Notes: a model not told the origin generated them from the sequence alone. DNA of 24,000 nt from Thermoplasmata archaeon (GCA_026414225.1 JAOAJK010000013.1:16536-40535), one strand, 5' to 3'. Shown: positions 8,911 to 23,766, numbered from the stretch's first letter. Translations and numbers: made by a program.

Positions 8911-8923
8911 GATAGTAAAAGGT

Positions 8924-9283
8924 TTAAGGTGCTTTTACTGCGTCCGCTGCCTTCTGCATTTCCGAAAGCACCATGTTCGTATCCTTCGCACTGTCCACAA
9001 CGCAAATCAATAGCGCCTTCTTCCCGGCACCCAGAATTATGGTCCTGGTGTCGGAACTCTCAATCACTATCCTCTCCGGTGTTGCCCTCTTCAGCTCAGA
9101 TGTAGCAGTTATGCTCGCTCCCAGAATTGTGGCGCACATTATTGCGAAGGTTTCCGTGTATACCCCTGGCGGCATCTCTGCAGCAATAACAAGACCGTCC
9201 CTGCTCACCACCGCCACTGCAATTGCCCCAGTGCTTATTTTCAGATTCTTCACAACTTCATTCATATTCACTGGCATTTTCAT
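8924..9283 (-). CDS. Roadblock/LC7 (MglB-like) domain protein
   Basis: 119 aa. GAIAVAVVSRDGLVIAAEMPPGVYTETFAIMCATILGASITATSELK...IVIESSDTRTIILGAGKKALLICVV matches the Roadblock/LC7 pattern. Confidence 0.75.
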   Translation of the reverse strand: MKMPVNMNEVVKNLKISTGAIAVAVVSRDGLVIAAEMPPGVYTETFAIMCATILGASITATSELKRATPERIVIESSDTRTIILGAGKKALLICVVDSAKDTNMVLSEMQKAADAVKAP

Positions 9284-9289
9284 TCCTCC

Positions 9290-9691
9290 CTATATCGCCT
9301 CAATCTTAAACACGCATTTATCTTTCCCTGTGCTTTCACATTCGACCTCGACACAATGGACCTTTGTGTTGTAATATACTTCATAGACCTGTCTTATCAG
9401 TCCCCTGAGTCTATGACATGTAGGTATCTCCGAAGGTGTGATTTCTATAGATCCCTTCACAACGACCTCGTGCTCCTTGAAAGAAATCTCATCCGCCCAG
9501 CCCCTGTTCTTTATCAGCATCTCCACAATCTTGAAGTAGTTTCCCTTGTCCTTCATTGCTTCATTTGCAATTTCTGCGCCGAATATTGAACCCTCTCTGA
9601 AGAATAGCCCATGACAGGCATGGGACATCACGCCTTCGTAAAGTTCCTTGATTTTCACCAGTTCCGCCTGTGATATCCTGACGAACTTCAT
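9290..9691 (-). CDS. V4R (4-vinyl reductase-type) small-molecule-binding domain protein
   Basis: The ORF is 9290..9709 with a TTG start. The ATG at 9691 (MKFVRISQAEL...) lies ~25 nt downstream of a TATA-like box (minus strand ctttatattt, + coordinates 9713-9722), consistent with a leaderless mRNA. The sequence FFREGSIFGAEIA...CHRLRGLIRQVYEVYYNTKVHCVEVECESTGKDKCVFKI has the V4R hallmark C...G..G...ExxCxxxGxxxCxF. Confidence 0.7.
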   Translation of the reverse strand: MKFVRISQAELVKIKELYEGVMSHACHGLFFREGSIFGAEIANEAMKDKGNYFKIVEMLIKNRGWADEISFKEHEVVVKGSIEITPSEIPTCHRLRGLIRQVYEVYYNTKVHCVEVECESTGKDKCVFKIEAI

Positions 9692-9864
9692 GCTACCATG
9701 AAATCGCAAATCAAATATAAAGTTTTGCTTTCATTTTGAAGGCTTCTCTCCTAAATGCCGCAATCCCGAATAAGGGGTAGGCAGAGGTTTCCTGATGGAA
9801 AGGTTAGATGCTGCTAGCCCTGTGAACCAATAAGAAATAAATATTGCAAGAGTATTTCCTCACC

Positions 9865-12579
9865 ATGGCTACAAAAAATCTATGGTATGCCATGGAAACG
9901 AAAGAAACACTGGCACTTTTAAAGACCTCTGCTGAAAAGGGGCTTACATCTGAAGAAGCGCGGCGGAGATTGTCAAAAGGAAAAAATGTGCTTGCCGAGA
10001 AAAAAAAGGAACATCCAGTGATTAAATTTTTAAATCAGTTCAAGAGCATTCCAATTATTATGCTTATTGTTGCTGCGATAATAACTGTTATTTTAACAAT
10101 TTTTACTGAAGAAAATCATCTATCTGATACGGTCGCGATTCTGATAGCGATAACAATCAATGCGGTGATGGGCTACATGATGGAGGCAAGGGCGGAGAAG
10201 GCCATGGAAGCCCTGAAGAGAATGACTGCACCCAAAACAAAAGTGGTAAGAGATGGAACCTGCCAGGAAATTCTCGTGGAAGATGTGGTCCCAGGCGATA
10301 TCGTGCTCCTGGAGGAGGGGGACAAGGTTCCTGCAGACATTCGCCTTATAGAAACCACAAATCTGGAAGTGGATGAATCTATGCTCACAGGGGAGAGTGT
10401 TACGGTGCAGAAGGATGCCCATGCATGTCCAGAAGACGCTGAAAAGTGGGAGAGAACGAATCTGGTATACATGGGCACAATTGTGGCAAGAGGACGGGCG
10501 AAAGGAGTCGTTTTCCACACGGGGATGGAGACAGAACTTGGAAAAATTGCAAAACTTGTGCAGGAAAGTGAAGGCGAGGAAACTCCCCTCCAGAAAAGCA
10601 TCGATACACTCGGCAAACAAATTGGCTACATTGCAATAGCGATTTCTACCTTGCTCTTTTTCACAGCCACCGCAATTTCCCAAACCCATCTTTCCCAGAA
10701 CTTTCTGCTTGCAATTAGCTTGGCAGTCGCAATAATCCCAGAGGGGCTTCCAATCGTGCTCGTGGTTACCCTCGCAATCGGAATGCAGGTGATGGCAAAG
10801 CGGAACGCAATCGTTCGCCGCCTAATGTGCGTGGAAACCCTAGGATGCACCTCTGTCATCTGCACTGATAAAACTGGCACGCTTACGAAAAACCAGATGA
10901 CTGTAAAAGAAGTGTTTGTGGACGGTGAAATTCTTTCGGTAAGTGGCACTGGCTATGAACCAAAAGGTGAGATTGAAAACGCCGGTGAGCATAAGGGAAG
11001 CATTGACCTTCTAACAAGGATTGGAATTCTCTGCAACAATGCAAATCTACTTGAGGAAAATAACGCCTGGAAGGTCATTGGAGATCCGACCGAGGGGGCG
11101 CTCCTTGCGCTCGCCGGAAAGGTGGGTGCTGTTCCGAAGCAGTTCCACACCAAATACAGGCGAATTTACGAGAAGGTGTTTGATCCTAAGAAAAAGATAA
11201 TGAGCACGATAAATGAGGTGGATGGAAAGAAGGTGATCCACATCAAAGGTGCACCTGAGGTTATTCTCTCGCTTTCTGGGAATTTCTGGCACAACGGAAA
11301 AGTTTTGCCGCTATCCCACCAACACCGCACGGCAATTGAGATTGCAAACAAGAGAATGGCATCGATGGGATACAGGGTGCTGGCTCTCGGATACAAAGAG
11401 ATAGAACAAATCCCAGAGAATGTGGAGGACATGGAGAAAAACATGACCTTTGTTGGCCTTGTGGGTATAATAGACCCGCCAAGACCAGAAGTAAAGAATG
11501 CAATCAAAACCTGTCATGAAGCAGGCATAAAGGTTGTAATGATCACCGGCGACCAGAAGGACACAGCAATAGCAATTGCAAAGCAGCTCGGAATCTGGAG
11601 CGGGAAGATTCTTACAGGTAGCGAACTTGAAAAGATGAGTGATGATGAACTGGCTAAAATCGTGGAAGAAGTGAGCGTTTATGCTAGGGTCCATCCCGAG
11701 ATGAAGTTAAAGATTGTGCGGGCTTTCAAGAAGAGGGGGCATGTGGTCGCAATGACTGGCGATGGCGTGAATGATGCACCTGCCCTTGCAAATGCGGATA
11801 TTGGAATTTCCATGGGAATTACCGGCACAGATGTGGCTAAGGATGCCAGTGGAATCGTGCTTGCGGACGACAATTTTGCAACTATTGTAAAAGCGGTTGA
11901 AGAGGGAAGAAAGATATATGAGAACATACGGAAATTTGTGAGATACCAGATAACCACGAATATCGGGGCGACCACACTGGTATTTCTTGCAATATTCACC
12001 GTACCTGGTGTGATCCCTCTCTACCCCGTACAAATTCTCTGGGTGAACATACTAATCGACGGTCCGCCTGCCCAGGCACTCGGACTTGAGCCCGCTACAA
12101 GGAAGATAATGAAGAACAAGCCCAGAAATCCGAAGGAACACATCCTCTCGAGGGAAATGGTATCCGCAATTCTTGTGAATGGACTGGCAATGGCGTTTCT
12201 CACACTCCTCGTGTTCTGGTATTCCTACAATTTTGCACCTGGTGAGTTTATGGATGCTCCTGCTGAAAGAGAGGCGTATGCCCAGACAATGACATTCACT
12301 ACATTTGTGGTATTCCAAGTGTACAGCGTCCTCAACTGCAGAAACCTGCGGGAGTCCCTGTTCAGTTTAAAGATGAATAACCGTTTGCTTTTAATTACAA
12401 TAGTTCTGGCGCTGCTTCTCCAGCTTTTTGCAGTTTACATGCCATTCATGAATTCAACCTTCAGAACAATTCCAATCAGAGCTGTTGACTGGCTTACGAT
12501 ATTCCTGCTGGGCATCATCCTGATTTGTGTGGATGAGATACGGAAGCTTGTGATGCGCCACCGCAGGGGTGATGTATGA
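9865..12579 (+). CDS. P-type ATPase, type IIA (Ca2+/cation-transporting, SERCA/PMR1-like)
   Basis: Motifs are TGES (LTGESVTVQK), PEGLP (IIPEGLPIVL), the phosphorylation site ICTDKTGTLT, KGAPE, MITGDQ and GDGVNDAPALANADIGISMG, with 10 predicted TM helices. The ORF track starts at a TTG (9844). The ATG at 9865 (MATKNLWYAMETKE) lies ~20-25 nt downstream of the TATA-like aaataaatatt (9834-9844). Confidence 0.9.
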   Translation: MATKNLWYAMETKETLALLKTSAEKGLTSEEARRRLSKGKNVLAEKKKEHPVIKFLNQFKSIPIIMLIVAAIITVILTIFTEENHLSDTVAILIAITINAVMGYMMEARAEKAMEALKRMTAPKTKVVRDGTCQEILVEDVVPGDIVLLEEGDKVPADIRLIETTNLEVDESMLTGESVTVQKDAHACPEDAEKWERTNLVYMGTIVARGRAKGVVFHTGMETELGKIAKLVQESEGEETPLQKSIDTLGKQIGYIAIAISTLLFFTATAISQTHLSQNFLLAISLAVAIIPEGLPIVLVVTLAIGMQVMAKRNAIVRRLMCVETLGCTSVICTDKTGTLTKNQMTVKEVFVDGEILSVSGTGYEPKGEIENAGEHKGSIDLLTRIGILCNNANLLEENNAWKVIGDPTEGALLALAGKVGAVPKQFHTKYRRIYEKVFDPKKKIMSTINEVDGKKVIHIKGAPEVILSLSGNFWHNGKVLPLSHQHRTAIEIANKRMASMGYRVLALGYKEIEQIPENVEDMEKNMTFVGLVGIIDPPRPEVKNAIKTCHEAGIKVVMITGDQKDTAIAIAKQLGIWSGKILTGSELEKMSDDELAKIVEEVSVYARVHPEMKLKIVRAFKKRGHVVAMTGDGVNDAPALANADIGISMGITGTDVAKDASGIVLADDNFATIVKAVEEGRKIYENIRKFVRYQITTNIGATTLVFLAIFTVPGVIPLYPVQILWVNILIDGPPAQALGLEPATRKIMKNKPRNPKEHILSREMVSAILVNGLAMAFLTLLVFWYSYNFAPGEFMDAPAEREAYAQTMTFTTFVVFQVYSVLNCRNLRESLFSLKMNNRLLLITIVLALLLQLFAVYMPFMNSTFRTIPIRAVDWLTIFLLGIILICVDEIRKLVMRHRRGDV

Positions 12580-12941
12580 GCGTTGGGAGCATGGGGGTGG
12601 ACATTTACTTCGTTTTGATAACTCTAATCCTTTTTTTTGGCTTTTTTGTCAGCCCTTTCTTCTCCGCATTTGCAGGTGCTGGCCAGGGAAGAAACACTGA
12701 ATCGCCAGGAATCATGGGGGTCTTCATGAGAAACGTAAGGCGGAGAAAGGAGGCCCTGTTTGTATGGGGAATCCTGGCCCTCGCAGATGCAGTTCTGGCA
12801 ACAGTTTTTCTCCAGATGCTGCCGGCAATCCCCTTACCTCTCGCTTTCCTCTGTGTCGGCGCGATAATCTTCATTTATGTGGTTGAAATTCACGGGATCA
12901 ACAAAATGTTTGGAAGGGGAGATGTAGAAAATGGAAATTAA
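12576..12941 (+). CDS. Small hypothetical membrane protein (about 3 TM helices), translationally coupled to both neighbours
   Basis: 121 aa. The ATG overlaps the ATPase stop (ATGA at 12576-12579) and is preceded by AGGGGTGAT. The 3' end overlaps the EndoQ start by 11 nt. Hydrophobic helices include VDIYFVLITLILFFGFFVSPFF, LFVWGILALADAVLATVFLQML and LPLAFLCVGAIIFIYVV. I recognise no family. Confidence 0.5.
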   Translation: MSVGSMGVDIYFVLITLILFFGFFVSPFFSAFAGAGQGRNTESPGIMGVFMRNVRRRKEALFVWGILALADAVLATVFLQMLPAIPLPLAFLCVGAIIFIYVVEIHGINKMFGRGDVENGN

Positions 12942-14202
12942 TGCAGACCTCCACATTCACAGCCGTTACTCGGGTGGGACGAGCGATGTCATGAATATGC
13001 GCAATCTATCCAAGGGTGCAAGCCAGAAAGGAATAAACTTGATTGGTTCCGGAGATTGCCTTCATCCCAGATGGCTTGAGGAAATAAAGGCACTGGAAAA
13101 GGTGGATGAGGGAACTTTCGAAATTGGGGGTCTGAGAGTGATTTTAACCTGTGAGGTAGAGGACTGCGACAGGGTACACCACCTGCTTATGTTCCCTTCA
13201 ATTTCAAAGGTAGAGGAATTTTCAGAAAAGATTCTCTCGAAGGTATCAGACCTCACAACCGATGGCCGGCCCAGGTTTCATGGAAATGGGGCGGATCTCG
13301 CAGCGATCGCAAGGGACTGTGGGGTCCTTATCGGCCCCTGCCATGCGTTCACTCCCTGGACATCCGTATATGCTGCGTTTGATTCGCTGAAAGAGTGCTA
13401 TGGGGAACTTGTGGGATATGTGGGTTACATAGAACTCGGGCTGAGCGCGGACACCTCTTATGCGGACAGAATTGCAGAACTCCATGACCTTACCTTCCTT
13501 ACAAATTCCGATGCCCATTCTCCCTGGCCTGTACGGCTTGCCAGGGAATTCATGCGGATGGAAGTTGAGGAGGCAATTTTCGAAGAAGTGGCTATGGCTA
13601 TACTTCGAAGGAAAGGGAGACAGGTAGTGCTGAATGTGGGTGTGCCACCAGAAGAGGGAAAGTACAATGAGAGTGCATGCATAAAATGCTACGCCCATTA
13701 CACCCTGAATGATGCGGTGAGAAATGGCTGGAGGTGCAGGTGCGGGGGCAGAATAAAGAAAGGGGTCCGGGATAGAGTTGAGGAACTGGCAGACTATCCG
13801 GAGCCGAAAACACCTTCCCACAGACCAAGATACATCCACATCATCCCTCTCACGGAAATAATTGCGAAAGCATTGGGCAGCTCTCCAAATAGCAAAAAGG
13901 TTCTTGAAATCTGGGATGGTCTCATCAACAAATTCGGTAATGAGGTGAGAATTTTAATCGATACCGAGATTGAGGAAATCAGCAAGGTAGCACCTCCAGA
14001 GGTCATTAGGGCAATCGCCGCCTTCAGGGCCGGGAAGGTTTTAGTGAAGCCAGGCGGTGGCGGGCAGTATGGAGAAATTGTGATTCCTGACGGCGGTTTA
14101 GAAACGTCCAACATTTCCAGGAATGCCAGTACACCATCAATGAAAAAAGGGGAAAGCGGAAGGGTGAATAGGCACCAGCCAACCCTGGATAGCTTTAGTT
14201 AA
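12931..14202 (+). CDS. Endonuclease Q-like PHP-domain nuclease (TIGR00375 family) with an internal zinc finger
   Basis: 423 aa. The N-terminal PHP motif is ADLHIHSRYSGG. Conserved blocks are LTCEVEDCDRVHHLLMFP, GPCHAFTPWTSVY, ELGLSADTSYAD and NSDAHSPWP. The zinc finger is CIKCYAHY...WRCRCGGRIKKGVRDRVEEL, and the C-terminal block is KPGGGGQYGEIVIP. Length and block order match what I recall of archaeal EndoQ, which cleaves 5' of deaminated bases. Confidence 0.7.
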   Translation: MEINADLHIHSRYSGGTSDVMNMRNLSKGASQKGINLIGSGDCLHPRWLEEIKALEKVDEGTFEIGGLRVILTCEVEDCDRVHHLLMFPSISKVEEFSEKILSKVSDLTTDGRPRFHGNGADLAAIARDCGVLIGPCHAFTPWTSVYAAFDSLKECYGELVGYVGYIELGLSADTSYADRIAELHDLTFLTNSDAHSPWPVRLAREFMRMEVEEAIFEEVAMAILRRKGRQVVLNVGVPPEEGKYNESACIKCYAHYTLNDAVRNGWRCRCGGRIKKGVRDRVEELADYPEPKTPSHRPRYIHIIPLTEIIAKALGSSPNSKKVLEIWDGLINKFGNEVRILIDTEIEEISKVAPPEVIRAIAAFRAGKVLVKPGGGGQYGEIVIPDGGLETSNISRNASTPSMKKGESGRVNRHQPTLDSFS

Positions 14203-14213: not shown

Positions 14214-14265
14214 AACGCTTAGCGTTAGTTATATATTTGAGTTTTGTTATATTGGTTAGAAGGTG
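14214..14265 (+). promoter_or_regulatory. Putative promoter and leader of the Ubl-E2-JAMM-E1 operon: palindrome, TATA-like box, Shine-Dalgarno site
   Basis: A perfect palindrome aacgct-t-agcgtt lies at 14214-14226, immediately upstream of the TATA-like ttatatat (14229-14236). aggtg (14261-14265) sits ~10 nt before the ATG at 14275. The 72-nt gap after the EndoQ stop contrasts with the gaps and overlaps of 20 nt or less inside the operon. Confidence 0.4.
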
Positions 14266-14274
14266 CACCTCTAA

Positions 14275-15345
14275 ATGTCACCCGAAACTTCAGAAACCAC
14301 GAAATGTCCTTATTGCGGCAAAAACATTCCAAAGGACTCTACAATCTGCTCCTCATGTGGGAAGGAACTGTTTGAGGAGGTGTTCCTCTGTCCTAAATGC
14401 AATGAAGAAGTCGGGGAACTGGATGAAGTGTGTCCTCACTGTGGTGCTAGATTTGCCTCCTCAAAACCCACAAGTTTTCTGGAGACGGGTGGAAGTTACA
14501 TTGCAGAGGATGAAAACCTTGCCTACAGATTGTTCAAGGACCTGCTGGATGCTGGTTTTGCAGGACTGTGTCTGACTAAAAGCAATCCTAGAAAAATCAG
14601 AAAGAGGTACAATGTCAACATCGATGAGATATACTGGCTCACCTCCACCCTGACAAAGGAGAAAACCCTTGACCCCCAGCGGCTGGAGTTTGAAATGACC
14701 TACATCATTGGAGAATTCGTTAAAAATAACTCAAAGCCGGCAATCATTCTGGATGCAATCGGGCTTCTCATAACTGCAAACGGTTTTGAGAAGGTAATTG
14801 ATTTCGTGAAGGGCGTAGTTGACATGGTGTCAGTCAATAACGGTGTGTTCATTGTCCATGTTTCCCCGATTGTTCTAAGCAAGAAGGAAATTGAAACGCT
14901 TAAGCAGTATCTTGAGGTCATAGATTATAAAAAAGCTGGAATAAGCGAACCGGAGAGCATGGAGGAAGAGGAGGGCGAAGAACTTGCAGAACCAGAGGAA
15001 ACCAGAAAGGAGAGTTTTGAACTCATCATGCAGAAATTCAGGTTACTTTCAAGTGAGGCAGAAAAGGAAGAAACTACAAAAAAGAAAAAGGTGGTGGAAG
15101 AAATGTCGATAAGAGTGAAAGTGCGCGATGCTGAGACAGGTGCTTCGCTGGACATGGAACTCGAGCCAGACAATACAATAGACGAGATCATAGAAAGTGT
15201 GGGTACCTACTGGGAGAAGAACATAGGCGTGTATGTGCTCCGTAAGGGAAAGCGCATACTGCGAGGCGAAACCAAAGTGGAGGAAGCAGATATAAGAGAT
15301 GGGGACTTAATGGAGCTCATCCCTGACCCAGAAGGCGGAATTTGA
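14275..15345 (+). CDS. Double zinc ribbon + DUF835 + acidic linker + C-terminal ubiquitin-like (beta-grasp) domain ending in GG-I
   Basis: 356 aa. Residues 11-56 carry four CxxC pairs with regular x10 spacing (CPYC-x10-CSSC-x10-CPKC-x10-CPHC). Residues ~70-217 follow the DUF835 pattern (GGSYIAEDENLAYRLFKDLLDAGFAGLCLTKSNPRKIRKRY...IYWLTS...LDPQRLEFEMTYIIGEFV...PAIILDAIGLLITANGFEKVIDFVKGVVDMVSVNNGVFIVHVSPIVLSKKEIETL). An E-rich linker follows. The last 80 aa are MSIRVKVRDAETGASLDMELEPDNTIDEIIESVGTYWEKNIGVYVLRKGKRILRGETKVEEADIRDGDLMELIPDPEGGI. They show a beta-beta-alpha-beta-beta pattern and a diglycine one residue from the end, as in Ubl precursors. Confidence 0.8.
   Translation: MSPETSETTKCPYCGKNIPKDSTICSSCGKELFEEVFLCPKCNEEVGELDEVCPHCGARFASSKPTSFLETGGSYIAEDENLAYRLFKDLLDAGFAGLCLTKSNPRKIRKRYNVNIDEIYWLTSTLTKEKTLDPQRLEFEMTYIIGEFVKNNSKPAIILDAIGLLITANGFEKVIDFVKGVVDMVSVNNGVFIVHVSPIVLSKKEIETLKQYLEVIDYKKAGISEPESMEEEEGEELAEPEETRKESFELIMQKFRLLSSEAEKEETTKKKKVVEEMSIRVKVRDAETGASLDMELEPDNTIDEIIESVGTYWEKNIGVYVLRKGKRILRGETKVEEADIRDGDLMELIPDPEGGI
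15103..15342 (+). other. Ubiquitin-like beta-grasp module (80 codons) with a possible internal translation start
   Basis: An in-frame ATG at 15103 is preceded by ggtggtggaag, a Shine-Dalgarno-like sequence. The module ends GGI immediately before the TGA (15343-15345). It is located directly upstream of the E2, JAMM and E1 genes. Confidence 0.6.
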
Positions 15346-15360
15346 GAGGGGGAATCAGAT

Positions 15361-15903
15361 GTGCCGCTTCCTATCGAAGTATTGAGGCAAAGGTTGTATA
15401 ATGAAATCCTTACATGCAAAAAAGAACTGAGGCACATACTTTCGGTCTCGGATAGCAGTCTGTCCAACTTTCCGATAGAAATAGACCTCACATTTGTAAA
15501 AACGCCTGGACCGTTTCTCTGGGAAGGAAAGGTGACCACCAGGTACACGCACAAGGTAAAAATAATCATCACTGCCCAGTATCCCTATCAGAAGCCAATA
15601 GTAAGATGGCTCAGCCCGATATTCCATCCCAATATAATGCCACCGCATGAAGGTGGTTATGTCTGCACCAAGCTTTTTGATACCTGGACACCCCAGTCGA
15701 CACTCCTGATGTTTATCAAGGGACTTGAGGCCCTGCTTTCAAATCCAAACCCTGGAAACCCTCTCGGGAGCGAGGCATGCCAGAAAGCTGCGGAGTATTT
15801 TGAAAAGCATCCGTACAAACCACCAGTTATAGTAGAAAAGACAAAGACAGAGCATGCTCCGAAGATTGTTGGAGGAGCAGAAGATGGCGAGGGAAAAACC
15901 TAA
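15361..15903 (+). CDS. Ubiquitin-conjugating enzyme E2 (UBC fold)
   Basis: 180 aa. The GTG start is preceded by GAGGGGG (15346-15352). The UBC core is ITAQYPYQKPIVRWLSPIFHPNIMPPHEGGYVCTKLFDTWTPQSTLLMFIKGLEALLSNPNPGNPLGSEA. It contains the HPN triad (res 89-91), the catalytic Cys102 (tgc 15664-15666) about 11 residues after it, a W-x-P after the Cys, and the LL..PNP..PL helix. Confidence 0.85.
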   Translation: MPLPIEVLRQRLYNEILTCKKELRHILSVSDSSLSNFPIEIDLTFVKTPGPFLWEGKVTTRYTHKVKIIITAQYPYQKPIVRWLSPIFHPNIMPPHEGGYVCTKLFDTWTPQSTLLMFIKGLEALLSNPNPGNPLGSEACQKAAEYFEKHPYKPPVIVEKTKTEHAPKIVGGAEDGEGKT

Positions 15904-18508
15904 GATTGTTGGCGAAAGCAAAAAGGAGATTTCGAATAAAGAACCACCACAATACGAGTATCTAGCACCCCATGAATGGTCATCTAAAGAGGGGTTTGAA
16001 CTTTTTAAAAAGACAATAGAGTCGTCAAAAATTTTTGATGTTTACATTTCTAAAAATGCGGAAGAAAAGATTCTCCTCCATGCAATGAAGTACAAATCCC
16101 AGAACCTCGAAGTGATGGGATTCCTTCTGGGCGATGTGTACAAATACGACGGAAAGGTGTACACAGTTGTCCGGGACATTGTGACCTCAGACCTTGATGC
16201 CAGTGCCGTTCATGTGAAATTTGACAAGGAGGGTTATGAGAAACTGTTTGAACAGCTGGATGAAATTCCATTTGATTACATTCTGGTTGGCTGGTATCAC
16301 TCACATCCCGGCCACACATGTTTTCTCTCCAGCACCGACATTTCAACCCAGACCAAGATGTTTCCGCATGAATATCACTGTGCAATCGTAGTAGACCCGA
16401 TAAACGAAGAGTTTGCGGTCTTTGGTGTCAGGAACATGGATTATTACTCCCGTCCCTATGCAATTTTCTGGGAGGAATTGCAGAAACCATATGACTGCGG
16501 AAAATGGAAACCGGAAATGGGAAAAATTCAGTATCCTGTCAAAAAGAAAAAGATGCTGAAGAAGAAGGAGCACTCTGATGAGGATTCCAAGGTGTGTCCC
16601 AGATGCAAGGCAGAAGTGAGTTTTGCAGAAGCCATCTGCCCGAACTGCAAGTATGAGTTTGAGATGCCTAGCATAGAGGATTCCCTCGCTACCCTTAGCG
16701 AAAAGTACAGAGAACTGGAAAACCTGAAAAATGAGCTTGCTGCAAGGGAGGAAGCCCTCAAAACCAAAGAAAGTGACCTTTATGTCTGGGAAGAGGACCT
16801 TAAGATGCGGGAAAACAAACTCCAGGAAAACTATTCGGATATTAACAAGAAAATTGCGGAACTCACAGAATGGGAGAACTGGTTGAAGGCAGAGGAAGAG
16901 AGAATTAAACAGATTGGAATTGAGTTAAACGCAAAGGTGCAGGCGTTTGATGCAATGTCCCAGGACCTCAGGAAGCGCGAAGAAAACCTGACAGTCCAGA
17001 TGTACCAGCTCGAGATGGAACGGAATGCATTGAATGCAAAGTTTGAAGAACTGAGGCAATGGGAGGAGCGTTTAAAGGAAGCCCAGGAATACCCGCAAAA
17101 CATTGCAACCATGCCTGAGGAGATGCGGAAGAAGATAGAGGCGGATTTAAAGGAGCTGAGACAGATACGGGAGGAACTGCGGATAAAGGAGAAGGAGTTG
17201 AATTTAAAAGAAAAATGGATTCTCGATGCAATCCAATCCCTTAAAGAAGAAACAGGGGAGAAGGAAAAAGTTGAGAAATTTATAAAACTAATGGAGGAAC
17301 TGGAAAGAGAAAAGAGAGAAGTTGACACCAAGGCAACAGAGCAGGCAGCGATGGGGGCCATGCTGGCTGAGAAGGAAAAGCTATTCAAGGAGAAGGAGGA
17401 ATGGCTCAAGGCGGAGGAGGACCGCGCCCGTGTGCTTGCTGCAGAGCTGGAAGAAAAGGAAAGACAGCTCAATCAGATGCTTGCAGAAACCTCCGAAAAG
17501 AACGAAGAAATAGACCGTATGAAGATTGCACTTTCCAAGGCAATCGAGCAGACAAATGCAAAAGCCATTGAACTGAACGAAGCCAAGGAAAGATTGAAGA
17601 AGGAAGAAAACGATGTGATCCGTGTCAAGCAAGAACTGGAAACTCGCAGAGTCGCAATAGAGGATAAGGAAAAAGTGCTTTATGAGAAGGAAGAATTTAT
17701 CAGAAGCGAGGAGGAAAAACTGAAGGCAATGAACCTGAGATTGATGGAAAAAGATAGGGAGTTGCGGGAAAGAGAGGCCTTGGTTTCAGAACAGGAAAAA
17801 GTCATGGCGGAAGAGCGTGCCCGGATGGAGGAAGCGAGGAAAGAATACAATCAGCGTGTGGATAAAATCACAAGGTATGAGGCGACGCTCACCGAACGGG
17901 AGAGAACTTTTGCAGAGAAAGAGGAGTATATTGAGAGAAAAATTGTGGAGCTGGAAGGACGGGAGCGGGAGTTAAATGAGCGAGAGGAAAATGTGAAGAA
18001 GAAGGAGGAGGAGATTGCGAAAGACCTTGCTGTTATCGATGAGATGGGAAAGGAATTTGCTACCAGAAAGAAACAGATGGATGAACTTGAAGCAACGATC
18101 ACTGCGAAAAAAGAAGAGGTGGAGCAGGAAAAGAAGAATGTGGATGCCATGCTTCACGAAATAGAGCTAAAGACCCAGGCGGTTATTGAGGAAAAGAGCA
18201 ATATTGAAGCGGAAAAGGAGACCCTCAAACGGATGCGGGGAGAACTCGAAACTGCAATTGTTGATCTGGCCGGAAAAAAACTACCGCCAGATGCTCTTAA
18301 AGCTGAAATTGTGAGGGAAGTTGTGGAGAGGGTAGAGAAGGAACTCGCACCAGCAGTCAAGAAATTCCTGGAAGTAAAATCCAATGCTGAAAAGGTAATG
18401 GAGAAACTGAAGAAGCAGAAGGAAGAAATTCTCAAGGAGAAAGAGGAAGCCGAGGAAATTCTGAGAAAGCTTGAGAAAAAGGGATTTAAAAAGACCCAGG
18501 GAGGTTAA
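15884..18508 (+). CDS. JAMM/MPN+ metalloprotease (Rpn11/Bil JAB-like deconjugase/Ubl-processing enzyme) fused to a zinc ribbon and a ~600-aa coiled coil
   Basis: The ORF track starts at 15854. The ATG at 15884 has GGAGGAG 6 nt upstream and overlaps the E2 stop by 20 nt. The MPN+ motifs are Glu in NLEVMGFLLGD and the exact JAMM signature HSHPGHTCFLSSTD (HxHx7SxxD; cac tca cat at 16298-16306). The zinc ribbon is CPRC-x10-CPNC (16595-16648). Roughly from 16680 to the stop, the sequence is continuous E/K/R/L-rich heptad-like sequence. Confidence 0.85.
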   Translation: MAREKPKIVGESKKEISNKEPPQYEYLAPHEWSSKEGFELFKKTIESSKIFDVYISKNAEEKILLHAMKYKSQNLEVMGFLLGDVYKYDGKVYTVVRDIVTSDLDASAVHVKFDKEGYEKLFEQLDEIPFDYILVGWYHSHPGHTCFLSSTDISTQTKMFPHEYHCAIVVDPINEEFAVFGVRNMDYYSRPYAIFWEELQKPYDCGKWKPEMGKIQYPVKKKKMLKKKEHSDEDSKVCPRCKAEVSFAEAICPNCKYEFEMPSIEDSLATLSEKYRELENLKNELAAREEALKTKESDLYVWEEDLKMRENKLQENYSDINKKIAELTEWENWLKAEEERIKQIGIELNAKVQAFDAMSQDLRKREENLTVQMYQLEMERNALNAKFEELRQWEERLKEAQEYPQNIATMPEEMRKKIEADLKELRQIREELRIKEKELNLKEKWILDAIQSLKEETGEKEKVEKFIKLMEELEREKREVDTKATEQAAMGAMLAEKEKLFKEKEEWLKAEEDRARVLAAELEEKERQLNQMLAETSEKNEEIDRMKIALSKAIEQTNAKAIELNEAKERLKKEENDVIRVKQELETRRVAIEDKEKVLYEKEEFIRSEEEKLKAMNLRLMEKDRELREREALVSEQEKVMAEERARMEEARKEYNQRVDKITRYEATLTERERTFAEKEEYIERKIVELEGRERELNEREENVKKKEEEIAKDLAVIDEMGKEFATRKKQMDELEATITAKKEEVEQEKKNVDAMLHEIELKTQAVIEEKSNIEAEKETLKRMRGELETAIVDLAGKKLPPDALKAEIVREVVERVEKELAPAVKKFLEVKSNAEKVMEKLKKQKEEILKEKEEAEEILRKLEKKGFKKTQGG

Positions 18509-18509
18509 G

Positions 18510-19343
18510 ATGACAGCCAATAAGGTATTGAAGGTGGGAATGCATGACGAGGACATGTTTGATAGAGAAAAGAGAATTCCATGGATCAAATTCAATTTAC
18601 TCCAGAAAAGTAAGGTGCTTGTGGTGGGTGCAGGTGCCCTTGGCAATGAGGTGGGGAAAAACCTGGTTCTCTCAGGTTTCAAGAATATCTCAATAGTGGA
18701 CATGGATAAAATTGTGAAATCCAATTTAAGCAGATGTGCTCTTTTCCGAATTGAAGATGCAGAGAAAGGGCTGCTCAAGGCAGAAGTCCTTGCCAGAGAG
18801 CTGAAAAAACTGGATAAAACCGTGAGGGTTTCCTGGTACTCCAAACCAATTCAGGAACTCCCAGAGGATTTTCTCAAGGAGTTTGACATTATCTTCGGAT
18901 GCCTGGACAACATCATGGCGAGGTTATACATCAACTCCCACGCATACTATTACGGAATTCCCCTGGTAGATGGAGGCACACTCGGTACATCTGGAAAGGT
19001 TCAGGTGGTACTGCCTCCCAGAACCGCATGTATAGAATGCGGAATGAACAAAACCCATTTCAAAAATCTGGAGCAAATCTTTTCTTGCTCGGGAAGGGAG
19101 GATGTGACAATCTACTCTCCGAAGCTGCCAGCGGAAATTACTACTACTGCTGTGATTTCAGCGCTCCAGGTACTCTCAGGAATAAAGATAATCTCAAAAC
19201 AGTATGACTCCCTCCCCTACAACCTGATTTACTATGATGGATACCGGAATGTGTTTGAGGTCCTTGAAGTTCCCCTGAATAGTCACTGTCCCAACCACAT
19301 AACCCAGCCAACAAAACCAAAGAAGGAGAAAAAGAGGAAATAA
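18510..19343 (+). CDS. E1-like Ubl-activating enzyme (ThiF/MoeB/UBA family adenylation domain)
   Basis: The ORF track starts at 18471. The ATG at 18510 sits 1 nt after the JAMM gene stop and is preceded by GGGAGG (18499-18504). It has the Rossmann ATP loop VLVVGAGALGNEVGKNL, the IVDMDKIVKSNLSRCALF block (D-x-D...NL-x-R), FGCLDNIMARLYIN, DGGTLGTSGKVQVV, and the zinc-site pairs CIEC ... CPNH. Confidence 0.85.
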   Translation: MTANKVLKVGMHDEDMFDREKRIPWIKFNLLQKSKVLVVGAGALGNEVGKNLVLSGFKNISIVDMDKIVKSNLSRCALFRIEDAEKGLLKAEVLARELKKLDKTVRVSWYSKPIQELPEDFLKEFDIIFGCLDNIMARLYINSHAYYYGIPLVDGGTLGTSGKVQVVLPPRTACIECGMNKTHFKNLEQIFSCSGREDVTIYSPKLPAEITTTAVISALQVLSGIKIISKQYDSLPYNLIYYDGYRNVFEVLEVPLNSHCPNHITQPTKPKKEKKRK

Positions 19344-19360
19344 AATTTTTAAATTTATTC
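19337..19360. terminator. Possible bidirectional terminator between convergent genes (AT-only imperfect inverted repeat with oligo-T)
   Basis: Only 11 nt separate the E1 stop (19343) from the convergent stop (19355). The sequence gaaataaaatttttaaatttattc contains a T5 run on + and a T4 run on -, and an imperfect inverted repeat (gaaataaaattt / aaatttattc). Archaeal termination commonly uses oligo-T tracts. Confidence 0.3.
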
Positions 19361-21100
19361 AAACCCTGGTGGGAGATATTCGCCAGGTTTCTGGTGCCAT
19401 GCGACGCTCTTCCCTTTCTTCTTCTTCCTCTTCTCTTTCCACTCTGGAATCTTGTGTCTTAGATAGAAATACCAGAGCAGGAAGACCACGAGGACTGTAA
19501 TAACCACCGCTGCAACGATGTATGGCGTGTAGTCGGGCGGTGGCGGCGGCACCTCGGTCATTTTCTGCTTTACCTGTGAGTCAGCATATAGCTCTGTTAT
19601 GCATATGACCCTTAGCTTGAAGAAGTATGTGGTCCCTGGCTGAAGTCCGCCCACTTCTTTATATGTGGTGTCTTTATTGGTAATTACATACCTTTTCTCT
19701 GCATTCTGGGGGTTAGTGGAAATTGTATTGAGATTAGAATCGCAGTAGAGTTCGTATCTCGCGAAGTCGGGTGCAGTGGATGCAGACCAGGTCACATTCA
19801 TCGATGTGGTTGTGACATCAAAAAAGCCAAAAATTTCACAGGGCTGGGGTTTGATTGCCTTTGGATTGTCAAACATGTAAACTCCAGCCGGATTATCTGT
19901 TACTCTGTATGCTGCACCCAGCGCTATGCGACTTCCATCATCGCGGCTCATATCTATGCTGCTCACCAGATCGAAGTCAGTGGAAAGTTCGATGCTGCGG
20001 AACGGTTTATGCACAGGCACATAAATCAGCCACATGTTCTTTGCAGTGGCGACGACAATGTAATTTCCGTCTTTGTCCATGAACGCATTTACAATTGTGT
20101 TGTTATCAGGTGTGGTCCAGTTCCATTTGAACCTCTTCGAGAATTCCATTGTGGAAAAATCGAGGAATGTAATCTGTTTTCCGACCGCCACAAAGCCCTC
20201 ACTGCCCGAATAATTCATAGAAGTGGCTACTGCGTCTCTGATTCCATCAACCCTCCATACCTCCTTGTTCTGGGTCTGGATGAATTTCAGAATTGCATTA
20301 TTGGTGCAGACCATGATAACGGTGCCATCATCGGACATCTTCATTGCGGTAATTCTAGAAAGATAACCTGAACCAAGGATGTCTCTCAAGCGGTCTGTCT
20401 GCCACTTCGGGCCATAAGGGCTATCCCTCTCGTAGAGTTCAAGCCGCACATAGGTGTCTGACTCGGAGACACCGACCACAAAGAATTTACCATCGTAGGA
20501 AGCGGAAAGTCCGTACTTGGCTCTCGCATCGGAAAAACCTGTCTGGTAGTTCCAGAGTTCAGTGCCTGTTTCTACATTGTACATTGAGACATTGTATTTC
20601 CATGTGTTCGACCATCTGTAATAGTAAGTGACCATCAGCAGTTTGCCATCCGCAGAAATATCAAAACCAGTTATATTGCCAGGTCTCGGCTGGGAGACAT
20701 TCCATCCATATTGAGGCGGTTGATTCGGGGAGTAGATGCGGAAAGGTGTCTGCATATCCTGTCTGTAAATCCTGACTGCTCCTCTATCGGAAACGAATAG
20801 CAGCGGCGGGTCTGCCTTCTTTGCAATCTTTATGCCCGTAATGTCAGCACCGTACAACCATGTTCTCACGAGGCTACCCGTGTCCGCCTCAAACAGATAT
20901 ACATTGTTTGCGTAATCGTAGGCACCAATGTATTTGGCGTCATCAGTGATAGAAATCCCTTTTACAGTGCTGTTTGTCTCGTACTTCCAGGTCCATTCGA
21001 GAGCATAGCCACCTTCTGCATTTCTGGGGGCACTATGGGGGTAAACCCCGCTTATCATTATCCAAATCAGCATAAGAACTACGATTCTGCCCGCTTTCAT
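19355..21100 (-). CDS. Secreted, C-terminally membrane-anchored beta-propeller (WD40/PQQ-like repeats) + fibronectin type III domain protein
   Basis: 581 aa. The N-terminal signal or anchor is MKAGRIVVLMLIWIMISGV. There are about 7-8 blade-like repeats of the form I(T/S)x(I/M)xxSxDGxxΦΦΦ (e.g. ITGFDISADGKLLMV, ITAMKMSDDGTVIMV, VNAFMDKDGNYIVVA, VSSIDMSRDDGSRIAL). An FN3-like segment follows (TSMNVTWSASTAPDFARYELY...GLQPGTTYFFKLRV), then a PPPPP linker, the TM helix YIVAAVVITVLVVFLLWYFYL and a basic tail. A GGTGAT Shine-Dalgarno site lies 4 nt before the ATG, and the TATA-like gttataaatacc is at 21130-21141. Confidence 0.7.
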   Translation of the reverse strand: MKAGRIVVLMLIWIMISGVYPHSAPRNAEGGYALEWTWKYETNSTVKGISITDDAKYIGAYDYANNVYLFEADTGSLVRTWLYGADITGIKIAKKADPPLLFVSDRGAVRIYRQDMQTPFRIYSPNQPPQYGWNVSQPRPGNITGFDISADGKLLMVTYYYRWSNTWKYNVSMYNVETGTELWNYQTGFSDARAKYGLSASYDGKFFVVGVSESDTYVRLELYERDSPYGPKWQTDRLRDILGSGYLSRITAMKMSDDGTVIMVCTNNAILKFIQTQNKEVWRVDGIRDAVATSMNYSGSEGFVAVGKQITFLDFSTMEFSKRFKWNWTTPDNNTIVNAFMDKDGNYIVVATAKNMWLIYVPVHKPFRSIELSTDFDLVSSIDMSRDDGSRIALGAAYRVTDNPAGVYMFDNPKAIKPQPCEIFGFFDVTTTSMNVTWSASTAPDFARYELYCDSNLNTISTNPQNAEKRYVITNKDTTYKEVGGLQPGTTYFFKLRVICITELYADSQVKQKMTEVPPPPPDYTPYIVAAVVITVLVVFLLWYFYLRHKIPEWKEKRKKKKGKSVAWHQKPGEYLPPGFE

Positions 21101-21195
21101 TTAATCACCACTGAGAGGATTACTTATGGGTATTTATAACTTTCTTGGATTGACTTCAGAAAGGAATTAATAGTTTTCGGGATTATCATTGTTTG

Positions 21196-23766
21196 ATGAG
21201 TGTATCCCTTAATCTACCGCCAGCATTCGTGGACAGAAAGAGAGAAATATCTCACCTGGATAAATTCGTAGAGAATGTATTTAGTGGTGCGGGGAGTGTG
21301 CTGCTGATTCAAGGAGAGGGAGGTGTGGGAAAAACCCGATTGCTGGAAGAAGTGAAAAGGATGGCCGGGGAAAAAGGGTTTTATGTTTTACCCTCCAAGT
21401 GTTTACCTGGCACCACCTCCCCCCTCTCCCCTTTCTACGAGGCCCTCAAATTTGTAAACCTGGAACACCTTCTTGTAGAAAGCTCCCCGAATTTGGATGC
21501 CCTTTATGTTGTGAACAAGGGGGGCATAATCCTCTCGAAATACGAGAAGACAGTGAAGAACATAGACCCCGACATCTTTCTTGGAATGGTCACAGCGGTG
21601 GAGAACTTCATAAGGGATTCGATGACCCAGATTGCCGGAAAAGAGCAGGTCGAAATTGAAGAAAAGCTGGGAGTGATGAGGCACGGAGAATTCACAATCG
21701 TGAACATGCCTGGCAAAAACATAAACCTGGTTGCCCTTGTTGAGGGCGTTGAAAACGAGTACCTGCTGGATGACATGGGCCGCCTGATTGAGAGAATAGA
21801 AGCAATCTCGGATGCCTCCGAGGGGATGCACGCTGAACTGGAAGAAATGCTCAGGGCACTCGTGGAATCTGATAAGTATACGCGGATTGCTCTGGAAACG
21901 GTGGACAGAAGGACTGGCATTTTTGAGAATGTGCTCCTAGGAATCAAGAGAATCTCCTCGAGAAAACCAGTCCTGCTGGTTATCGATGACCTGCAGTGGG
22001 CGGACAGTTCATCGCTTTCCCTGCTCAATTATATAGGGCGAGACATTGCTGCAGAAAGGGTGGGTATAATATGTGCTGCAAGGTCAGATGAAATTCCAAC
22101 GGCTAGCATGCTCCCAGACATGATAGATGCAATGAGAACGGAGAACATATTGGAACTGCTCAATCTCGCGCCACTGGATAGGGGGGGTGTGGAGGAGTTG
22201 ATAGAACGTGTGCTGGGCGGGCATGTGGACGCTGGCTTCAAGGAAAGGGTCTACATCGAAGCTGAGGGCAATCCCCTATTTGTCATCGAACTTTTGAAGT
22301 ATCTTACGGATAAAGGGTTGCTCCGCAGAGAGGCGGAACTCTGGGTCTATGAGAAGGAAGAAATAAGGATACCCGAGAGAATTTATGAAATAATAAAGGA
22401 AAAAATCACCAGGTTGAATGCGGACGAGTTTGAGGTGCTTGAGACCGCTAGCGTGCTAGGAACCGAGTTTATAACTTCGTTGCTGGAAAAAATGGTGGAT
22501 ATGGACAGGATAAAACTGCTTAGGGCCCTCTCAAGAATCGAAAAAATTCACGGGTTGATAAAACAGGAAGGGGGCAAATACAGATTCGATCCCACCAAAA
22601 TCCGGGATGTGATATACGATGAGATGGGGTCGGAACTCAGGCAAGCCCTGCACGAAATGGTGGGGAAAATCCTGGAGGAGGAGTACAAAAAAGGAGACGA
22701 GGAAAAGATTCTTGGAGCCATTTATCACTACAGAAAAGCCGGATGTCTGGATAAATTAAAGGACTACGGACTCGTGGTTGCGGACAAACTCGCCGGGAGA
22801 TTTGCATATGATGAAGCTGTAGAGGTTTTAAAGGCACTTTATAATTCCCTTAACAGACACGATTTAAAGGAAAAAGAGATAGCAATGGCTGCCCTTGAAA
22901 AGATGATTGAAGTTTTGCTCTCGTCTGGACTTTATGAGGATGCAATGAAAGCGCTGGAGGAAAAAATTTCCCAGTCGGGAGATGGAGATGATAAAGCAGT
23001 CCAGACCCATGTAACACGTTCTGAGATATACTTAAAAATGGGTGAGCATGAAAAGGCGATGGAGAGCATAAACAGGGCGTTTGAATTGCTGGCTCGGACC
23101 CGTGGGACTTGCGCGCCTGAAATCGCAAGGATGCTCAGCATCAAGGGGTACATTCACGAGAGGGCAGGCAATTACCAGAACGCAATTGAATGTCAGGAGA
23201 AAGCCCTGGAGTTGTTCAGTAAGGAGAGAAAAGAAAAGGAGATTGCAACCTGCTATACCAGAATCGGTTCTACCCATTACTATCTGGGGAACTACGACGA
23301 GTGCATTGCGTGTTTAAGAATCGCTGAGGAAATTTTTGCCAGAAACAATGACAAGTATGGACTCTCCCAGGTGTATAACAATCTAGGAATGGTATACTAT
23401 GAACTGGAGGATTTCAGGAATGCAGAACGGTATCTCGAGAAAACTGTAGAACTGAAGGAAACGGTTCATGATATGGCAGGAATTGCAATTGCAAAAAACA
23501 ACCTTGGAAATGTTCATTTCGAAATGGGAAACCTGGAGAAGGCAATAGGGCTCTACATCGAAGCCAGGCGCCTCTGCAAGAAAACTGGAGATAAATGGAT
23601 GTTTGTTTACAACCAGATAGACCTTGCGGAGGCGTTTGCTGAAAAAGGAGACGAGATAAAATTTCGGTCAGCTATCGAGGAAGCCCTGAATGTGGCTTCA
23701 CAAATTGGGATGGAAAAAGAGGTAGTAGAGGCAAAAGAAGAAATGGAAAAAAGGTTCAGGCGTTGA
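21196..23766 (+). CDS. STAND-type AAA_16 P-loop ATPase with C-terminal TPR array and a ~100-aa insertion in the NTPase domain
   Basis: TTG at 21193, ATG at 21196. Walker A is LLIQGEGGVGKTRLLEE and Walker B is PVLLVIDDLQWADSSSLSLL. A helical arm follows, then at least 6 TPR-like repeats (e.g. IATCYTRIGSTHYYLGNYDECIACLRIAEEIF, LSQVYNNLGMVYYELEDFRNAERYLEKTVEL, IAKNNLGNVHFEMGNLEKAIGLYIEARRL). About 225 aa separate Walker A from Walker B, noticeably more than I expect for AAA_16. Confidence 0.8.
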   Translation: MSVSLNLPPAFVDRKREISHLDKFVENVFSGAGSVLLIQGEGGVGKTRLLEEVKRMAGEKGFYVLPSKCLPGTTSPLSPFYEALKFVNLEHLLVESSPNLDALYVVNKGGIILSKYEKTVKNIDPDIFLGMVTAVENFIRDSMTQIAGKEQVEIEEKLGVMRHGEFTIVNMPGKNINLVALVEGVENEYLLDDMGRLIERIEAISDASEGMHAELEEMLRALVESDKYTRIALETVDRRTGIFENVLLGIKRISSRKPVLLVIDDLQWADSSSLSLLNYIGRDIAAERVGIICAARSDEIPTASMLPDMIDAMRTENILELLNLAPLDRGGVEELIERVLGGHVDAGFKERVYIEAEGNPLFVIELLKYLTDKGLLRREAELWVYEKEEIRIPERIYEIIKEKITRLNADEFEVLETASVLGTEFITSLLEKMVDMDRIKLLRALSRIEKIHGLIKQEGGKYRFDPTKIRDVIYDEMGSELRQALHEMVGKILEEEYKKGDEEKILGAIYHYRKAGCLDKLKDYGLVVADKLAGRFAYDEAVEVLKALYNSLNRHDLKEKEIAMAALEKMIEVLLSSGLYEDAMKALEEKISQSGDGDDKAVQTHVTRSEIYLKMGEHEKAMESINRAFELLARTRGTCAPEIARMLSIKGYIHERAGNYQNAIECQEKALELFSKERKEKEIATCYTRIGSTHYYLGNYDECIACLRIAEEIFARNNDKYGLSQVYNNLGMVYYELEDFRNAERYLEKTVELKETVHDMAGIAIAKNNLGNVHFEMGNLEKAIGLYIEARRLCKKTGDKWMFVYNQIDLAEAFAEKGDEIKFRSAIEEALNVASQIGMEKEVVEAKEEMEKRFRR

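Follow-up and report, generated by a model that had tools for sequence, protein, structure and literature searches.

Four Packed Genes for a Ubiquitin-Type Cascade

A 24,000-nucleotide stretch of DNA from a Thermoplasmata archaeon (JAOAJK010000013.1:16536-40535), referred to here as the window and along which all positions are counted, carries at 14275-19343 a cassette of four co-directional open reading frames (ORFs) encoding a ubiquitin-like protein (Ubl), a ubiquitin-conjugating enzyme (E2), a JAMM metalloprotease, and a ubiquitin-activating enzyme (E1). The genes are given the working names g1 to g4, and all features of the cassette lie on the plus strand. Genes g1 and g2 are separated by a 15-nt gap, with GAGGGGG preceding the GTG start of g2, while g2 and g3 overlap by 20 nt, with GGAGG preceding the ATG of g3, and g3 and g4 are 1 nt apart, with GGAGG again preceding the start of g4. 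A preliminary description of the locus had placed the four ORFs at the same coordinates with this packing and had read from them a β-grasp Ubl ending in Gly-Gly plus one residue in the C-terminal ~80 residues of g1, a genuine UBC-fold E2 with an HPN motif and Cys102, a JAMM domain with an intact HxHx7SxxD site, and a ThiF/MoeB-type E1 with a GxGxxG loop and a CxxC...CxxH site. All of these assignments are borne out by the profile, structural, and coordinate evidence set out below.

The product of g1 (14275-15345) is a 356-residue protein made up of a zinc ribbon, a DUF835 domain, a disordered linker, and a Ubl, as indicated by Pfam, by full-length homologues (database clusters P0108-P0112), and by an AlphaFold2 (AF2) model. 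The double zinc ribbon (residues 7-58; 14293-14448) is matched by the Pfam families Zn_ribbon_3, Zn_Ribbon_1, and DZR and contains CxxC pairs at C11, C25, C39, and C53, the eight cysteines of which are invariant across five fusion homologues. This is followed by the α/β DUF835 domain (residues 68-215; 14476-14919), which Pfam recognizes over residues 78-211 with an E-value of 2.7e-26 and which AF2 models confidently as alternating strands and helices, with a predicted local distance difference test score (pLDDT) of 84-92. DUF835 has been listed as an inactive KaiC-like (iKaiC) output domain of archaeal response regulators (PMC5847659). The DUF835 relatives of g1 are mostly cytoplasmic domains of seven-transmembrane (7TM) or β-propeller receptors. 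The acidic and lysine-rich linker (residues 216-276; 14920-15102) is predicted to be disordered, residues 224-276 appearing so in the full-length model and pLDDT falling below 50 at residues 224-247 and 252-276, and its length and sequence differ between lineages through in-frame indels.

The Ubl itself (residues 277-355; 15103-15339) ends in ELIPDPEGG, with Gly354 and Gly355 encoded at 15334-15339, and is followed by a one-residue cap, Ile356 (15340-15342), which by analogy with the Caldiarchaeum Rpn11 system would have to be removed. In the Pfam search, the last 80 residues of g1 gave only a weak match to YukD. The fused Ubl is nevertheless a true homologue of the free, GG-ended Ubls of a Thermoplasmata family described below, with 50-71% identity to them and with all of their invariant residues retained, including ELIPDPEGG. 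The profile of this family matches di-ubiquitin over its full length (E ~7e-4) and Rub1/NEDD8 (0.03). An AF2 model of residues 277-356 based on an alignment of 33 homologues, and the full-length model as well, adopts a β-grasp fold, with a mean pLDDT of 91 for the former; a second DUF835 protein encoded in the window was left out of the g1 alignment because its row had aligned wrongly onto the Ubl. Foldseek places the Ubl model with Hub1, SUMO, Caldiarchaeum ubiquitin, and ubiquitin at template modelling (TM) scores of 0.81-0.85, with NEDD8 and ISG15 also among the matches, and superposition on Caldiarchaeum ubiquitin (6fnn_C) gives a TM score of 0.84 and a root-mean-square deviation of 1.2 Å.

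The E2 is encoded by g2 (15361-15903; 180 aa) and contains an HPN motif at residues 89-91 (15625-15633) and a catalytic cysteine, Cys102 (15664-15666). The protein scores 51.8 bits against Pfam UQ_con (cut-off 27; E=8e-14) and directly matches eukaryotic E2s of known structure, including UBE2A/Rad6 and UBE2N, at 2e-12, with the FHPNI...GGYVC segment aligned to their active site. Across 37 relatives, residues H89, P90, N91, C102, W109, P129, and N130 do not vary, and P131 hardly does (at least 90%).

Gene g3 (15884-18508, with an alternative ATG start at 15854) encodes an 874-residue JAMM/MPN+ metalloprotease carrying a zinc ribbon and a long coiled coil. The JAMM domain (residues 52-175; 16037-16408; Pfam JAB, E=3.8e-14) includes E76 in the sequence EVMG (16109-16120) and an intact H139-S-H-x7-S-x2-D152 motif (16298-16339). 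Its matches among characterized proteins are Rpn11 (6e-14), the Rpn11-like protein of Caldiarchaeum (6fjv, 3.3e-13), and CSN5 (1e-12), and the NCBIfam desampylase model reaches 28.1 bits, below its cut-off of 130. The zinc ribbon, C238xxC...C252xxC (residues 238-255; 16595-16648), is matched below cut-off by Pfam UPF0547 and DZR and is present in the window and in the related loci L005 and L017 and absent in L021 and L004. The remaining 612 residues (263-874; 16670-18505) are assigned as a coiled coil from their composition and periodicity, being 48% charged with only 5 prolines and showing hydrophobic periodicities of 3.5, 2.33, and 7 residues, along with weak matches to SMC, Rad50, and ASRP. 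A JAMM domain with a long extension is also found in L017, L005, L021, and L004. The g3 protein happens to end in ...KKTQGG (18497-18505), where L017 has ...ASGGSS and L021 and L004 share a conserved TVWKKAAK; the terminal GG, not being conserved in L021 or L004, was set aside as a meaningful feature and is probably coincidental.

The last gene, g4 (18510-19343), encodes a minimal E1 of 277 residues with a single adenylation domain (Pfam ThiF, E=6.6e-51, residues 31-261), a GAGALG loop (18627-18644), and a zinc site formed by C174xxC177 (19029-19040) and C260xxH263 (19287-19298). The closest solved structures are active adenylation domains, namely those of UBA1 (1.5e-32), UBA3 (1e-27), and SAE2 (8e-24), whereas ThiF/MoeB are matched at only 1e-13 and Cap2 at 1e-7; in addition, the protein falls below the NCBIfam cut-offs for ThiF, MoeB, and UbaA (for UbaA, 73 bits against 450). 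The zinc ligands C174, C177, C260, and H263, together with H183 and C193, are invariant in 56 relatives. Cys193, located in the sequence FSCSG (19080-19094) within the ~25-residue segment that separates the crossover CxxC from the next helix, is a candidate for the thioester cysteine. Because it is only 277 residues long, the protein lacks both a ubiquitin-fold domain (UFD) and a separate Cys domain, and it ends 14 residues past the CxxH.

Operon Family and Genomic Surroundings

The relatives of the cassette were surveyed by scanning one genome per GTDB species with the E2, keeping 80 loci, and mapping five domains onto them. Relatives of the E2 occur in 192 species-level genomes and in more than 100 database clusters, for which every source name given is a metagenome-assembled genome (MAG) of Thermoplasmata, Thermoplasmatota, or Euryarchaeota; the record titles of the 80 kept loci name Thermoplasmata, Thermoplasmatota, Methanomassiliicoccales, Methanobacteriota, or unclassified archaeal MAGs. 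The standard layout consists of an E1 (~265-280 aa), a free Ubl (62-82 aa), an E2 (~173 aa), and a short JAMM protein (~205-222 aa). The last three are present in ~70 of the 80 loci, with the E1 directly upstream in ~50, and across the mapped loci no further gene is conserved alongside them. Of 71 free Ubls, 58 end exactly in ...ELIPDPEGG, and the other 13 carry tails of 1-14 residues. The window E2 is 47-97% identical to those of the 80 loci (47-62% to those of standard operons) and contains the FHPNIM...GGYVCTKL segment. The four genes are thus found together in dozens of independent genomes, a co-occurrence far beyond chance. The preliminary description had assigned the cassette to a rare class of archaeal E2 operon, an assignment that has to be given up for a family whose E2 is present in 192 Thermoplasmata species genomes and whose normal members have a free Ubl and a short JAMM protein.

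In ~40-47 loci, the standard operon lies a few kilobases from an SIS gene and an rpL18e-rpL13-rpS9-rpoN cluster, and no relative of the E2 was found among the 2.9 million viral contigs of IMG/VR, on which ground a viral origin was rejected. Because of this ribosomal-protein and rpoN neighbourhood and the lack of E2 relatives in those contigs, the parent family looks like a vertically inherited cellular system rather than a mobile defence module. No RING pattern of the C3HC4 or C3H2C3 type was present in ORFs of at least 45 aa from the window and 84 related loci, in line with the earlier remark that no RING/E3 gene accompanies the cassette; this was a regular-expression search, which atypical RINGs could escape. 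In the searchable literature, with subscription journals outside the search, the only trace found of the Thermoplasmata operon was its E2 clade, named 'Ca. Thermoplasmatota E2' in a phylogeny (bioRxiv 10.1101/2023.07.25.550441). The family is widespread yet uncharacterised, and the minimal size of its E1 makes that enzyme interesting from an evolutionary point of view.

Some members of the family depart from the standard form in ways unlike the window. In L082, the gene at 8844-10376 encodes two JAMM domains in tandem followed by transmembrane helices at the C-terminus, L067 has at 7405-8510 two tandem E2 genes with no adjacent Ubl or JAMM gene, and the cluster P0083 is an E2 bearing a C-terminal zinc ribbon.

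The window, with its fused Ubl, its JAMM protein of 874 aa, and its E1 downstream of the JAMM gene, has a layout other than the canonical one. Full-length relatives of g1 are limited to the five database clusters already mentioned, which are 42-100% identical and annotated only as 'DUF835 domain-containing protein', and to one further relative, L087, from a metagenome scan in which the other matches covered the zinc ribbon alone or a distant DUF835 segment (L088). Among the best 150 of 2,515 matches to g1 in a library of 1.84 billion proteins, none combined DUF835 with a Ubl. The loci with a fused Ubl are L004/L042, L005 (which ends at a contig end), L017, L021, and L085/L086, with protein identities of 42-97%, and every one of them has the order Zn-ribbon-DUF835-Ubl, E2, long JAMM (629-881 aa), and then E1. 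In a neighbour-joining tree of the E2, JAMM core, and Ubl, they form one clade nested among standard operons, and because of this, the Ubl fusion, the JAMM coiled coil, and the placement of the E1 at the 3' end can be said to have arisen once and stayed together. The window and L017 are 75% identical in DNA over 14222-21147, while their g1 proteins are 88% and their E2 proteins 96% identical; since DNA has diverged more than protein and the linker indels are in frame, this indicates that the fused g1 frame is real and under purifying selection. The cassette is, as judged from these sequences, a lineage-specific derived member of the Thermoplasmata E1-Ubl-E2-JAMM family, found in a few related MAG and metagenome lineages. 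The DUF835-Ubl and JAMM-coiled-coil fusions appear to be undescribed, as had been supposed, no description having turned up in the same literature search.

All five fused Ubls carry tails after the GG. Such tails were rejected as a trait specific to the fusion, given that the free Ubls of the sister clade (L006, L008, L026, L070, L072, and L079) also have them, in the form of I, N, Q, QAA, or longer sequences. The sister clade has no E1 within 8 kb of its Ubl-E2-JAMM genes either, and the unlinking of the E1 and the gain of a C-terminal cap may have preceded the fusions. In one JGI sample (3300031749), a standard operon (L003, on a 1.1-Mb contig) is found together with the derived gene L087 (on a 4-kb contig, 85% identical to g1), so that both forms share one community, presumably in different organisms.

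Several smaller features of the cassette were read directly from the DNA. A TATA-like box, TTATATAT, is located at 14229-14236, ~40 nt 5' of the g1 start, and is followed at 14259-14265 by GAAGGTG, which resembles a Shine-Dalgarno site; the DNA similarity to L017 begins at 14222, just 5' of the box. Beyond the g4 stop, a T-rich stretch, AATTTTTAAATTTATT, occupies 19344-19362 between convergent genes, and it is possible that box and stretch serve as promoter and terminator of the cassette. Across the g2 tail and the g3 start, a 14-nt direct repeat, CC[G/T]AAGATTGTTGG, occurs at 15859-15872 and 15899-15912, 40 nt apart, and is translated twice into PKIVG in two different frames, once in the E2 tail (residues 167-171; 15859-15873) and once in the JAMM N-terminus (residues 6-10). 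Motifs of this type are found across the family, with [PIV][KR][IV][IVL] in 74 of 82 E2 tails and P[KR][IV][VL]xE in 58 of 77 JAMM N-termini, and the tail motif is absent from the E2s of L004 and L021. Many E2 tails have acidic residues after an [IV]R[IV][IV]G sequence, an arrangement reminiscent of a SUMO-interaction motif. The PKIVG sequences of the E2 tail and the JAMM N-terminus may represent a shared docking motif.

The surroundings of the derived cassette are variable. Unlike the standard operon, it is not adjacent to the SIS and ribosomal-protein cluster, and the flanking genes differ among derived loci. Upstream, 9844-14202 (+) holds genes for a P-type cation ATPase, a small membrane protein (12576-12941), and a 423-aa protein without a Pfam match, a homologue of which is annotated as MJ0043_C in precomputed annotations; this upstream order is kept in L085/L086 and not in L017. 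Downstream, a convergent gene at 19355-21100 (-) encodes a β-propeller and FN3 protein with a C-terminal transmembrane segment. This is the sole flanking gene syntenic in L017, the DNA shared with that locus being limited to the 14222-21147 interval, and no other conserved gene was found next to the derived cassette. It is followed at 21193-23766 (+) by a large NTPase of the STAND/MalT-like type with AAA_16 and TPR domains, which is not syntenic in L017. Farther upstream, at 4538-5707 (-), is the second DUF835 protein of the window, which combines a 7TM region at its N-terminus (HisKA_7TM) with a weak match to DUF835, the receptor-type architecture typical of DUF835 proteins. It is conceivable that this protein is a partner or target of the DUF835-Ubl protein.

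A Proposed Route of Modification and Its Alternatives

On balance, we lean toward the view that the cassette is a working-looking, E3-less conjugation system of the ubiquitin type in which the whole 355-residue g1 protein is the modifier, a view held with little more than even confidence. In such a system, the JAMM domain of g3 would remove Ile356 and expose the Gly-Gly, after which the g4 E1, probably as a homodimer, would adenylate Gly355 and form a thioester on Cys193 in the crossover-loop region. The g1 protein would then be handed to Cys102 of the E2 and transferred directly to target lysines without an E3. There is precedent for the early steps in the reconstituted Caldiarchaeum system, where the Rpn11 homologue trims a propeptide located after the GG and the E1 accepts ubiquitin for activation and transfer to the E2 only after this trimming (PMC5654768). 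The enzymatic steps proposed here follow that analogy, and the role of Cys193, the independence from an E3, and the travelling of DUF835 with the Ubl are inferred as well. Because no other Ubl gene is present in the cassette, the fused Ubl is the sole substrate that it encodes for its own E1 and E2, and because the β-grasp domain is C-terminal and JAMM enzymes cut only after the GG, the entire Zn-ribbon-DUF835-Ubl protein would serve as modifier, leaving the DUF835 module covalently attached to targets. The modification would be reversed by the coiled-coil JAMM protein, presumably a localised or scaffolded dimer, the coiled coil probably serving both to dimerise and to position this eraser. 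In terms of origin, the modifier gene has become an in-frame extension at the 3' end of a Zn-ribbon-DUF835 gene, the JAMM protein has acquired a coiled coil of ~600 residues, and the E1 gene has been relocated to the end of the operon. Additional N-terminal domains, coiled-coil or DUF1508, have also been described in bacterial Ubls (PMC11601603).

Several points weigh against a conjugation system built around the whole g1 protein. All of the sequences come from MAGs or metagenomes, and function is deduced from them; the lack of a ubiquitin-fold domain and of a separate Cys domain in the E1 makes its transfer to the E2 presumptive; and no E3 or targets are known for the system. The other points concern the integrity of g1 and lead to an explanation that we regard as rather unlikely, in which a small free Ubl is released from g1, by an internal start or by proteolysis of the linker, and the DUF835 part is a co-expressed regulator or pro-domain. 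The disordered and variable linker, with 55 residues, could be cut by another protease to free the Ubl, and an in-frame ATG at 15103 (region 15085-15105), exactly at the N-terminus of the Ubl and of its free homologues and with GGTGGTGG 7-14 nt upstream, might also allow a free Ubl to be translated. The window clade and L004 retain this Met, but the corresponding codon of L021 is ATA (Ile), and because L021 thus has no start codon there, an internal start cannot be the general mechanism. Nor does the cassette encode a protease specific for the N-terminal side of the Ubl, and lineages with as little as 42% identity have kept the fusion in frame, linker indels included, which would be unexpected if the link had no purpose. 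The opposite possibility is that the β-grasp domain is never conjugated and acts, in the manner of Rad23 or Dsk2, as an integral docking domain for the E1, the E2, the JAMM protein, or a proteasome/Cdc48 receptor, with the enzymes using another Ubl encoded elsewhere. The large N-terminal part of g1, in which the zinc ribbons and DUF835 resemble interaction or signalling modules, would suit such a role. As a rule, however, integral Ubl domains do not preserve a terminal GG, and here the exact conjugation-type ending ELIPDPEGG is retained together with a removable cap, in a protein whose gene takes the place of the free Ubl gene immediately before that of the E2, which makes docking alone improbable.

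Two further explanations question the nature of the system as a whole. An antiviral cassette comparable to BilABCD, which would mark viral proteins by attaching a bulky Ubl, is suggested by the Ubl-E2-JAB-E1 order shared with Bil (10.1101/2023.09.26.559546), by the N-terminal domains borne by some Bil and Bub Ubls, and by the inconstant flanks of the derived loci, as well as by the STAND-like AAA_16-TPR gene downstream. This gene has no syntenic counterpart in L017, though, and the E2 and E1 differ from their Bil counterparts as described below. PADLOC and PHROGs scans returned only generic E1, E2, JAB, or zinc-ribbon matches and nothing specific to a defence system, and a parent family that sits beside ribosomal-protein and rpoN genes and has no relatives in viral contigs has the look of vertical inheritance; this indirect evidence speaks against a mobile defence island, and the defensive role named among the possibilities in the preliminary description seems quite improbable. 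It is also possible in principle that the E1 and the β-grasp protein form a sulfur-carrier system of the ThiS/MoaD type, as the E1 has the fold and size of ThiF/MoeB and the cassette of L004 is followed by a gene for an aminotransferase class V, a member of the cysteine desulfurase family. The far closer match of the E1 to UBA1, UBA3, and SAE2 (1e-32 to 1e-23) than to ThiF/MoeB, its failure against the ThiF, MoeB, and UbaA models, the resemblance of the β-grasp domain to ubiquitin, SUMO, and Hub1, and the presence of a canonical E2 and an Rpn11-like JAMM protein in every locus leave this explanation with hardly any probability.

Returning to the conjugation of the whole g1 protein, a bolder version of it can be put forward tentatively and is, in our judgment, doubtful. 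The inactive KaiC-like DUF835 module would be covalently and reversibly stapled onto targets such as DUF835-bearing 7TM receptors, with the JAMM protein as a spatially fixed eraser, to give an archaeal signalling or assembly switch, and the minimal, UFD-less, homodimeric E1 would stand near the ancestor of eukaryotic E1s.

If conjugation does take place as proposed, a eukaryote-type system of Ubl, UBC E2, Rpn11-like JAMM protein, and E1 would be widespread in Thermoplasmata, outside the Asgard and TACK lineages and without a RING E3, which would bear on the origin of the eukaryotic ubiquitin system. A 277-residue E1 with UBA1, UBA3, and SAE2 as its nearest relatives would offer a minimal model for E1-to-E2 transfer before UFD and Cys domains were acquired. 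The derived cassette would in turn be an instance of such a system reorganized around a modifier of very large size and a deubiquitinase held on a scaffold, in parallel to the bacterial Bil and Bub Ubls but independently of them and with the use of an archaeal signalling domain, and it would provide a first concrete biochemical handle for DUF835. All components except the coiled coil are small and soluble-looking, so in vitro tests would be direct.

Comparison with Known Systems

The nearest known relative of the cassette is the standard Thermoplasmata operon, to which all four proteins are orthologous, with 47-62% identity for the E2 and 50-68% for the Ubl. The two forms share the ELIPDPEGG terminus, the P[KR]I[VL]xE motif at the JAMM N-terminus, the invariant Cys and His residues of the E1, and the lack of a RING gene. 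They differ in that the Ubl of the window is fused rather than free (62-82 aa), in the length of the JAMM protein (629-881 aa in the derived form against ~205-222 aa), in the position of the E1 gene after the JAMM gene rather than before the Ubl gene, and in the location of the window cassette away from the SIS and ribosomal-protein cluster.

The operons of Caldiarchaeum subterraneum and of Asgard archaea encode ubiquitin, E1, E2, a small RING finger E3, and an Rpn11 homologue (PMC3082918, PMC5654768). Here too the modifier is a ubiquitin-type β-grasp protein with a GG and a removable tail, the E2 is of the UBC type with HPN and a catalytic Cys, the JAMM protein is Rpn11-like, and the E1 is nearest to the adenylation domains of eukaryotic E1s. 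In contrast, the window belongs to a Thermoplasmata host, has no RING E3 by the pattern search described above, carries extra domains fused to both the modifier and the deubiquitinase, and encodes an E1 of 277 aa without the C-terminal Ubl/UFD domain typical of Clusters I and II (PMC5654768).

The bacterial BilABCD (Type I/II) and Bub systems show the same Ubl-E2-JAB-E1 order, lack an E3, and have Ubls that need C-terminal trimming (10.1101/2023.09.26.559546; 10.1101/2023.09.04.556158; PMC11601603). Their E1s also lack a UFD and build a zinc site from the crossover loop and the C-terminus, and some of their Ubls bear N-terminal coiled-coil, DUF1508, or low-complexity domains, DUF835 not being among those reported. 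Bil is, however, a phage defence system of bacteria, and the parent family of the window lies in a housekeeping neighbourhood. The E2 of Bil, BilB, has a CEHH motif (10.1101/2023.09.26.559546) where the window E2 has HPN, and no similarity between the two is detectable, the direct comparison with E. aridi BilB giving a BLASTP E-value of 1.4 over 6 residues and a family-profile probability of 0.2% with hhalign. BilD consists of fused inactive and active adenylation domains (IAD and AAD) with a helical Cys domain (~500 aa), as opposed to the single adenylation domain of the window E1. Because the E2 is unrelated in sequence to BilB and the E1 differs in architecture, the cassette is not a member of Bil; of the Bil-like character proposed earlier, the gene order stands, while the enzymes themselves do not support it.

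Archaeal sampylation (SAMP1-3, UbaA, and HvJAMM1) likewise uses a GG-ended β-grasp modifier, a single-domain E1 of MoeB size, and a JAMM isopeptidase. It has no E2, though, and the resemblance of the window modifier is to ubiquitin, SUMO, and Hub1, not to MoaD or ThiS. With an E2 in the cassette and scores below cut-off for both the UbaA model and the desampylase model (28.1 bits against 130), the system is not sampylation.

In eukaryotes, the last repeat of polyubiquitin has a one-residue cap, and NEDD8 and SUMO are made with short tails. As in these precursors, the residue following the GG in g1 would block activation until it is removed by a protease. The arrangement of the fusion is nonetheless the reverse of that in eukaryotic ubiquitin precursors, in which ubiquitin comes first and is cleaved from the partner that follows it, whereas in the Zn-ribbon-DUF835-Ubl protein the partner is N-terminal and would stay attached.

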